The position numbers and the translations under genes were made by a program. The notes below the pieces were generated by a model. The model had not been told where the DNA came from. It saw nothing but the letters and a program-made list of their open reading frames with translations, and did no database searches. 44,569 nt of DNA. It comes from Escherichia phage SECphi4. Within the stretch, counting starts at the first letter, position 1, and each line of letters starts with the position of its first letter. The stretch lies in the sequence record MT331608. One strand, written 5' to 3'. This document shows, one piece after another, positions 25,038 through 25,861 of this stretch.

Positions 25038-25802
25038 TTAGCGCGGAATACCGCAAATCTCGTTGAGAGTTTTCACATCCAGCGCCACCGCCGTGGATTT
25101 TGGCTTGTCCGGGTAAGGGATGAATTGCTCAACTTCAGGCCATGCCTTAATCAGCTTCTTATCGGTATTGTGCATATCCAGCACACCGGTAACGGTCAAC
25201 TTGAATGCGTCATACTTCGCACGCAATTCGCGGCGGGCCTGGTCGTTACGGTCAAGGCGCTTACAGAAGTCATGATCCGCCGGGAAATCAGCACGGCAGC
25301 GTGGCTTATAGATCGGAAGCGATTTTCCGTCCTCGTCCACTTCACACACCGAAGCCAACATAACTTCCTCGAACCCCGGTACGATATCGCCGAGATCGGG
25401 AGATAGCTTATTCATGTATTTATACTCCCAGTATCCGCGATGTACTCGGTATTGGTGCCCATCGCCGCTCAATGACAAGGTGCGAACGTTACCGCCTGCG
25501 TTGATTTCGAAAGTGGCGTCGTAAACGCTGCCAATACCTTTGGGGCGGTCGGTGTTATAACTATACGTCGCCTTGTTGGTGTATACGCAGACGCCGTACA
25601 TCTGCGACGGGTCATCGTTGATTGCTTCGATGTGTGCGAATAGTTCGGCGAACGTATGAATGCCCCCCGGCATACAGTGCAACGTAATGTCATACGCCAG
25701 GTCGCGCGAGTCCGTCATGATTGATTTGGCTTCGGTAGCGATTTCGTGGTCGCGCAGAATGTTAGCCAGAATCTGGTTTTTAATGTCTTTGGTCAGTCTC
25801 AT
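25038..25802 (-). CDS. Opposite-strand hypothetical protein (254 aa) inserted in the head module
   Basis: ATG at 25800..25802 with GAGGA SD; own promoter upstream and terminator downstream; no recognisable motif. Confidence 0.6.
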   Translation of the reverse strand: MRLTKDIKNQILANILRDHEIATEAKSIMTDSRDLAYDITLHCMPGGIHTFAELFAHIEAINDDPSQMYGVCVYTNKATYSYNTDRPKGIGSVYDATFEINAGGNVRTLSLSGDGHQYRVHRGYWEYKYMNKLSPDLGDIVPGFEEVMLASVCEVDEDGKSLPIYKPRCRADFPADHDFCKRLDRNDQARRELRAKYDAFKLTVTGVLDMHNTDKKLIKAWPEVEQFIPYPDKPKSTAVALDVKTLNEICGIPR

Positions 25803-25832
25803 TTTTGTGTCCTCGTTGTTGGTGTGCAACCA

Positions 25833-25861
25833 ATATATTGCAACCAATACAAGGATTGCAA
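25833..25861 (-). promoter_or_regulatory. Sigma70-like promoter (TTGCAA-N17-TATATT) with two ATTGGTTGCA copies
   Basis: Motif copies at 25825..25834 and 25839..25848 on the complementary strand; serves the gene starting at 25802. Confidence 0.5.

Follow-up and report, generated by a model that had tools for sequence, protein, structure and literature searches.

An opposite-strand Nmad5 gene in the head module of a Dhillonvirus: early-type promoter motif, homologues in replication operons and a genetic link to Tmn

We analysed the 44,569-nucleotide sequence of Escherichia phage SECphi4 (MT331608; hereafter the window), which belongs to Dhillonvirus (HK578-like E. coli siphoviruses). Over the region 24500-26700, we found matches at 80-99% identity in 158 phage records, almost all of them Escherichia or Shigella Dhillonvirus phages; Shigella phage StarDew matches best (95%). 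A gene map of the window was made by mapping the annotated StarDew proteins onto it. On this map, one minus-strand gene (nmad5, see below) lies between the plus-strand spanin and scaffold genes, in the position and orientation given by the first-pass annotation; within the terS-to-tail block, the sole other minus-strand gene encodes a cor-like lipoprotein. The features of the window and of the locus are as follows.

About 1-12026, minus strand: replication block with Dam, a Dcm-like gene, SNF2 helicase, VRR-NUC, PolA, an Enc34-type ssDNA-binding protein and a DUF2800 nuclease
From 12199, plus strand: early block with an HTH protein, a primase-helicase and small ORFs, followed by the lysis genes
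19936-25020, plus strand: terS, terL, portal, MuF-like head protein and spanins
24582-25020, plus strand: spanin genes, convergent with nmad5
25012-25032, both strands: GC-rich hairpin of 8 bp common to the convergent spanin and nmad5 genes, a candidate bidirectional terminator
25038-25802, minus strand: nmad5 coding sequence, 254 codons, stop at 25040-25038, supported by Pfam, PHROG, the SM_A8 orthologue and dN/dS
25155-25157, minus strand: codon of Lys216 (wild-type Lys), in the most conserved segment, T213-x3-L217-x3-W221-P-E223
25810-25814, minus strand: Shine-Dalgarno sequence GAGGA, 7 nt upstream of the ATG
25825-25848, minus strand: two copies of ATTGGTTGCA, one within the promoter spacer (25848-25839) and one overlapping the -10/start region (25834-25825)
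25832-25861, minus strand: sigma-70-type promoter-like site from a consensus scan (TTGCAA at 25861-25856, 18-nt spacer, TATATT at 25837-25832)
About 25904-26650, plus strand: scaffold gene, followed by the major capsid and tail genes on the same strand

A search of the window for non-coding RNAs and tRNAs returned none. The spanin genes stand about 6 kb away from the holin and endolysin genes (17347-18340, plus strand), after the MuF-like head gene.

The open reading frame as called mechanically at the locus (25038..25847, minus strand) begins at a TTG codon and would give a protein of 269 aa, as annotated in StarDew. This start was rejected in favour of the ATG at 25802-25800, and the 254-aa length is taken as correct because every homologue begins with MRLT and the GAGGA, which is retained as (a/c)gaggaca in 13/13 relatives, lies just before this ATG. 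The 254-aa frame and its Shine-Dalgarno sequence were thus placed correctly in the first-pass annotation, which had, however, considered the protein unassignable to any family, and this does not hold. The product matches Pfam PF18757 (Nmad5, 'Nucleotide modification associated domain 5') over its full length (residues 1-253, covering all 206 positions of the model), scoring 193 bits where the cut-off is 27 (E = 8.2e-57); it is also a member of PHROG 1965, which carries no functional annotation, and its alignment with SM_A8 Nmad5 (254 aa) is free of gaps and shows 88% identity. In SM_A8 and SMS22 the gene occupies the same locus. With the order spanin, opposite-strand nmad5 and scaffold, the high identity to the published gene and the presence of K216, the frame is, as judged by sequence, the Dhillonvirus orthologue of the described nmad5, so that both gene and family were already known. 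The Nmad domains are said to have been defined by Iyer and colleagues in 2013.

Other searches with the product were uninformative: profile-versus-PDB sequence searches returned nothing, NCBIfam gave only noise, and the PADLOC library, which holds defence rather than anti-defence proteins, contained no match. Structural or assembly families were likewise absent from the matches in Pfam, PHROGs, solved structures and a BFVD structure search, in agreement with the earlier view of the gene as something other than a virion component.

We examined the protein itself using an AlphaFold2 model built on a 30-sequence alignment, which was usable (pLDDT 79, pTM 0.76) and describes a stand-alone alpha/beta protein of about 29 kDa. 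Its elements are three helices at the N-terminus, one small beta-sheet, a long helix spanning 178-209 and short helices within 214-227; the tail (233-254) was modelled with low confidence. Comparison of this model with solved structures gave no fold match. Across 159 diverse family members the conserved positions are R2, L3, G104, T213, L217, W221, P222, E223, P229, L246, N247, G251 and P253. All are present in the window protein, the twelve other than L3 having frequencies of 0.84-0.99 in the family, and 70% of the members have a basic residue (K or R) at position 216. Members of PF18757 and PHROG 1965 thus share an N-terminal MRLT and a C-terminal T..L..WPE..P..LN..G.P with the window protein. 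Dhillonvirus members differ from those of 200-232 aa in carrying an extra 20-30 or so residues at roughly 115-145, a low-confidence part of the model. G, P, L, W and A make up most of the conserved residues; R2, T213, E223 and N247 are the only polar ones, and no conserved set of His, Asp, Cys or Lys was seen over the 159 members. Such a pattern (Gly, Pro and hydrophobic residues, strictly kept termini and a poorly ordered tail) seems closer to an interaction module than to an active site. With a pI of 5.9 (family median 7.1), the protein has no strong charge, and we rejected the idea of a DNA mimic on this near-neutral charge. The product is predicted to be cytoplasmic, as its sequence shows neither a signal peptide nor a lipobox.

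The gene is widespread in the genus. At a threshold of 60% identity, the protein is encoded by about 149 of the roughly 158 related records, which makes nmad5, on this count, close to a core gene in Dhillonvirus, and it evolves under purifying selection (mean dN 0.06, mean dS 0.52, dN/dS 0.12; 78 pairs). Its GC content (0.51-0.53, against 0.54-0.57 in the flanks) is like that of its surroundings, and a foreign composition was rejected. The first-pass annotation had pointed to morons here, a common class of self-contained, oppositely oriented insertions. Part of this stands: the cassette has a predicted promoter-like site and terminator hairpin of its own, is no virion gene, and its homologue is dispensable for lytic growth (Yamashita et al, 2025, Commun Biol, PMC11846954). 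The sporadic presence and deviant composition of a moron, however, were not found. Instead, the variable, moron-like element is, from these comparisons, not nmad5 but a cargo slot that lies ahead of it, after the promoter. An extra ORF was found there in 7 of the 13 relatives examined (L003-L008 and L011), 40-650 bp upstream of nmad5. Its four versions, of 135, about 105 (PHROG 24635), 53 and 170 aa, are unrelated to one another, and the last has a weak DNA-polymerase beta-clamp signal (PF02767 below threshold; PHROG 947, 9e-9). SM_A8 carries the version of about 105 aa, whereas the window has the empty form of the slot.

We then considered how the gene may be expressed. Consensus matches to a promoter are not above chance here (1 in 2 kb, 1.8 expected), and the promoter is instead supported by relatives that keep every base of the element, one of them (L012) with a protein only 63% identical. 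Both hexamers named in the first-pass annotation are present, with a spacer of 18 nt rather than its 17. The terminator it had proposed at the 3' end corresponds to the hairpin at 25012-25032, called on both strands, which has a folding z-score of -2.7 (beaten by 1/200 shuffles), a conserved stem and a variable loop in 13 relatives, and a T-run that is better on the plus strand (CTTTTCG) than on the minus strand (AATTATTT). The two ATTGGTTGCA copies at the promoter, also noted at first pass, are real and are part of a genome-wide set: the window holds 11 exact copies and 17 with at most one mismatch, against about 3 expected, and 0/100 shuffles reach 17. StarDew has 19 matches at corresponding places. 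The sites in the window, on both strands, are:

487-508: inverted pair
2391-2417: at a gp33-like gene (2391/2408)
12002-12011: divergent early region (12002)
14815-14859: after the primase-helicase (14815/14850)
15131-15262: at a gp52-like gene (15222/15253)
15982-15991
18590-18599
25825-25848: nmad5 promoter
41941-41950

Non-structural units on either strand have these sites upstream of them; terS and the late block are not preceded by any. At several sites, a TTGCA(T/A) -35 hexamer provided by ATTGGTTGCA stands 17 nt upstream of a TATATT-like -10, with a second copy within the spacer or overlapping the -10, and TATATTGGTTGCACACCAAC is identical at the nmad5 promoter and at the plus-strand promoter near 15253. 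The motif is probably an operator or promoter module common to early-regulon, non-structural promoters and, because the nmad5 promoter shares it, the gene appears to be co-regulated with early, non-structural genes. Early expression of nmad5 is thus a prediction from motifs alone, and a literature search for Dhillonvirus transcript data found none. A candidate regulator of the ATTGGTTGCA sites is the 109-aa product of the first gene of the rightward early operon (12199-12528, plus strand), which is annotated in StarDew as 'recombination nuclease inhibitor' and scored in a domain scan as an HTH_23 / sigma-70 region-4-like DNA-binding protein.

The cor-like lipoprotein gene (41665-41889, minus strand; lipobox LSGC), named after the annotation in relatives, is a single-gene cassette in the tail module with ATTGGTTGCA at 41941. 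Cassettes of the cor lipoprotein type resemble nmad5 in having their own promoter and a single gene that is convergent or divergent to the structural genes, and the cor-like gene of the window shares the motif as well. They differ in that the nmad5 product is predicted to be cytoplasmic and the gene is nearly universal in the genus, with homologues inside replication operons.

An exhaustive profile search gave 857 family clusters (50% identity), and Nmad5 is found in coliphages, Stx phages and phages of Pseudomonas, Vibrio and Bordetella. The best 150 of the 857 clusters are all stand-alone proteins of at most 251 aa, and no informative domain fusions were seen among them. One such operon is that of the related phage L026, whose replication module is collinear with that of the window (DUF2800 49%, Enc34 49%, PolA 65%, VRR-NUC 47%, SNF2 64%, Dcm-like gene 64%, Dam 54% and primase-helicase 47% identical) and which has Nmad5 (25% identical to the window protein; 89% to an Nmad5 encoded by Klebsiella phage VLCpiS11a) inside the operon, between gp47-like and gp46-like genes, a position where the window has no gene. 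Elsewhere, Nmad5 adjoins PolA and DUF2800 (L027), lies between a helicase and a Holliday-junction resolvase (Bas97), stands among small early ORFs in a Vibrio phage, or ends early operons beside or convergent with lysis genes in further phages. In lambdoid HK542, its place within the pL operon is directly after N, where lambdoid phages house accessory genes of the ral and sieB type. In Yuavirus (M6-like) phages, Nmad5 sits between aGPT-Pplase1 and a thymidylate-synthase-like gene in a thymidine-hypermodification cluster, and in three unrelated phage contigs (L038, L041 and L039) an opposite-strand Nmad5 lies right beside the major capsid gene. Judged from these neighbourhoods, the family would be a mobile stand-alone early gene whose link to base modification holds in one lineage only. 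We infer that nmad5 of the window is better described as an early, replication-module gene located in the head module, because L026 holds Nmad5 within a collinear replication operon and the promoter motif is shared with non-structural promoters.

Several of these contigs have further features of their own. In the metagenomic contigs L038 and L041, plus-strand islands are interleaved with minus-strand head and tail genes; the islands carry a dUTPase, a HAD/PNKP-like phosphatase, a dGTP diphosphohydrolase N-domain, DUF551 and Nmad5, which in L038 is preceded by an HTH_37 gene. In three others (L037, L040 and L042), early blocks that contain Nmad5 are convergent with a DUF2514 (Rz-like) gene, and the junction of spanin and nmad5 type may, given this convergence, be ancestral.

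The gene is already known from the genetics of the Tmn defence system (Yamashita et al, 2025, Commun Biol, PMC11846954). Escape mutants of the Dhillonvirus phages SMA8 and SMS22, which were without anti-Tmn, shared the substitution K216E in Nmad5 (K296E in the longer annotated SMS22 protein); reverting it restored sensitivity to Tmn, and introducing it conferred escape. Deletion of nmad5 was tolerated and did not give escape, cloning of the gene was impossible, apparently due to toxicity, and one escape mutant also had a mutation in the scaffold gene. The authors proposed that Tmn sensitivity depends on DNA modification (PMC11846954). The window phage is known here from its sequence, and the experiments concern the SM_A8/SMS22 orthologue; as the two proteins align without gaps, K216 is the same residue, and the window has the wild-type Lys. 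We also noted a natural nmad5 allele in SM_S24 (L044, PP920554; 5019-5573, minus strand), whose 184-aa product diverges after about residue 172 and is without the whole conserved C-terminal module, K216 included. SM_S24 is reported to be sensitive to Tmn, in agreement with the result of the deletion. The gene, for which the first-pass annotation suggested a host-interaction, exclusion or anti-defence role, has a genetic link to Tmn. This falls short of an anti-defence role as such: wild-type Nmad5 gives no protection and the K216E allele alone does. In T2, Tmn is activated by direct binding of the early phage protein RIIB (2026 preprint, PMC13001434), a result that weakens the idea of Tmn reading a DNA mark made by Nmad5. 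Homology of Nmad5 to T4 RIIB was rejected (hhalign probability 0.2%, E = 0.33), and no RIIB model was among the BFVD structure matches.

The reading that we prefer, tentatively and at slightly below an even chance, is that Nmad5 is an early-type accessory protein that acts by binding a partner through its C-terminal module, with K216E making it a decoy or mask toward Tmn. nmad5 would be transcribed from its own sigma-70-type promoter bearing the ATTGGTTGCA of early-type promoters, and would belong to the early, replication-associated gene set despite its site in the head module, as suggested by motif sharing and by synteny in a relative. Its product would bind a partner rather than catalyse a reaction, using a surface formed by the C-terminal T213..L217..W221-P-E223..P229..L246-N247..G251-x-P253 together with the N-terminal R2-L3-T4, and its native role would be tied to the replication and recombination genes among which homologues reside. 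In cells with Tmn, which is a membrane NTPase, this conserved surface would take part in whether the infection is sensed. K216E would then be a gain of function that blocks sensing, which loss of the protein does not, with the mutant Nmad5 serving either as a non-activating decoy or as a mask over the real or a redundant trigger. Some points count against binding: R2, T213, E223 and N247 could form an unrecognised active site, Nmad5 may have a helper role in DNA modification, as most of the Nmad5-bearing phages examined also encode DNA methyltransferases, and the reported toxicity on cloning may be unspecific.

Three other explanations were weighed against partner binding. Under the one closest to the published proposal, Nmad5 is a component of a base-modification pathway (an enzyme, or a specificity or accessory subunit) that works with the phage Dam/Dcm-type methyltransferases, and Tmn sensitivity is mediated by DNA modification. 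This agrees with the reading of the authors (PMC11846954), with the Pfam family name, itself based on the Yuavirus members, with the Yuavirus/M6-type context (aGPT-Pplase1, a kinase, a radical-SAM or PLP enzyme and a thymidylate-synthase-like gene) and with the presence of Dam and a Dcm-like gene here and in most other Nmad5 contexts. Yet neither an enzyme-like fold nor a catalytic signature was found, and modification genes are not nearby in HK542, among the early genes of the Vibrio phage or around the solitary capsid-side genes. The neighbours of the window gene are spanin and scaffold genes, unlike those of the Yuavirus members, and a scan of 20 early window proteins found no aGPT-Pplase, kinase or hydroxymethylase and thus no hypermodification genes, giving only Dam, DUF2800, Enc34 ssDNA-binding, VRR-NUC, HTH, metallophosphoesterase and DUF6378. 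Dhillonviruses are also moderately to considerably sensitive to restriction-modification according to the BASEL papers (PMC11990801), deletion of nmad5 leaves Tmn sensitivity unchanged (PMC11846954), and in T2 it is a protein, RIIB, that Tmn senses (PMC13001434). For Dhillonviruses the label 'DNA modification enzyme' appears weakly founded, and we regard a modification role as rather improbable. Nmad5 could instead be a dedicated host-takeover or counter-defence inhibitor that binds and blocks some protein of the host, be it a nuclease, a factor of replication or repair, or a defence system. Such a role would explain why the gene is toxic when cloned and why it is conserved although laboratory growth does not require it (PMC11846954). 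The early-type autonomous cassette, the position right after N in HK542, the variable cargo slot in the same operon of relatives and the occurrence as a mobile solitary gene in unrelated phages all suit an inhibitor. However, no similarity to known inhibitors was found (the PADLOC negative is weak here, the library being restricted to defence proteins), a literature search returned no paper naming Nmad5 as an inhibitor, the near-neutral charge speaks against DNA mimicry, and wild-type Nmad5 does not protect against Tmn, the one defence tested. An inhibitor is a possibility that we take seriously, and still consider unlikely. Finally, Nmad5 could belong to the virion or to head assembly, with the location of its gene reflecting this function. 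This would account for the position beside scaffold or capsid genes both in Dhillonvirus and, independently, in L038, L041 and L039, and for the scaffold mutation in one escape mutant (PMC11846954). The opposite strand, the early-type promoter, the viable deletion (PMC11846954), the lack of any structural-family match and the location in replication or early operons in many other phages make this highly improbable.

A more specific form of the partner-binding reading can be drawn from T2. T2/T4 RIIB and Nmad5 are alike in action only, as early proteins in which single substitutions abolish the Tmn defence; they are not homologous, and nonsense mutants of RIIB escape Tmn, whereas the deletion of nmad5 does not. 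Nmad5 might then be a non-homologous functional counterpart of T-even RIIB, an early, replication-associated protein that the cytosolic sensor arms of Tmn bind directly as a ligand, and Dhillonviruses would have two or more such redundant triggers. K216E in the conserved C-terminal module would give a decoy that still binds, does not activate and so shields the phage. We hold this to be quite doubtful. If true, the name 'nucleotide modification associated' would not fit the family, whose members would be widespread early adaptors watched by bacterial immunity.

The present analysis thereby frames the published oddity that K216E escapes Tmn and the deletion does not. What is new here is the genome-wide promoter motif, the operon context of L026, the capsid-side lineages, the cargo slot, the unmatched fold, the conserved residues without a catalytic look and the lack of hypermodification genes among the 20 early proteins scanned. 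The genetics of Nmad5 and Tmn matter for engineering therapeutic Dhillonviruses that evade Tmn, and the shared promoter motif and the cargo slot provide handles on early regulation and accessory-gene exchange in Dhillonvirus. Apart from the nmad5 locus, the region after J (tail tip; 40670-43784, plus strand) is unlike that of StarDew, with plus-strand ORFs of 100 and 223 aa in place of a minus-strand DUF6453-type gene and a lateral tail-fibre gene that is just 65% identical to that of StarDew over its N-terminal part; it is probably a host-range variable region.
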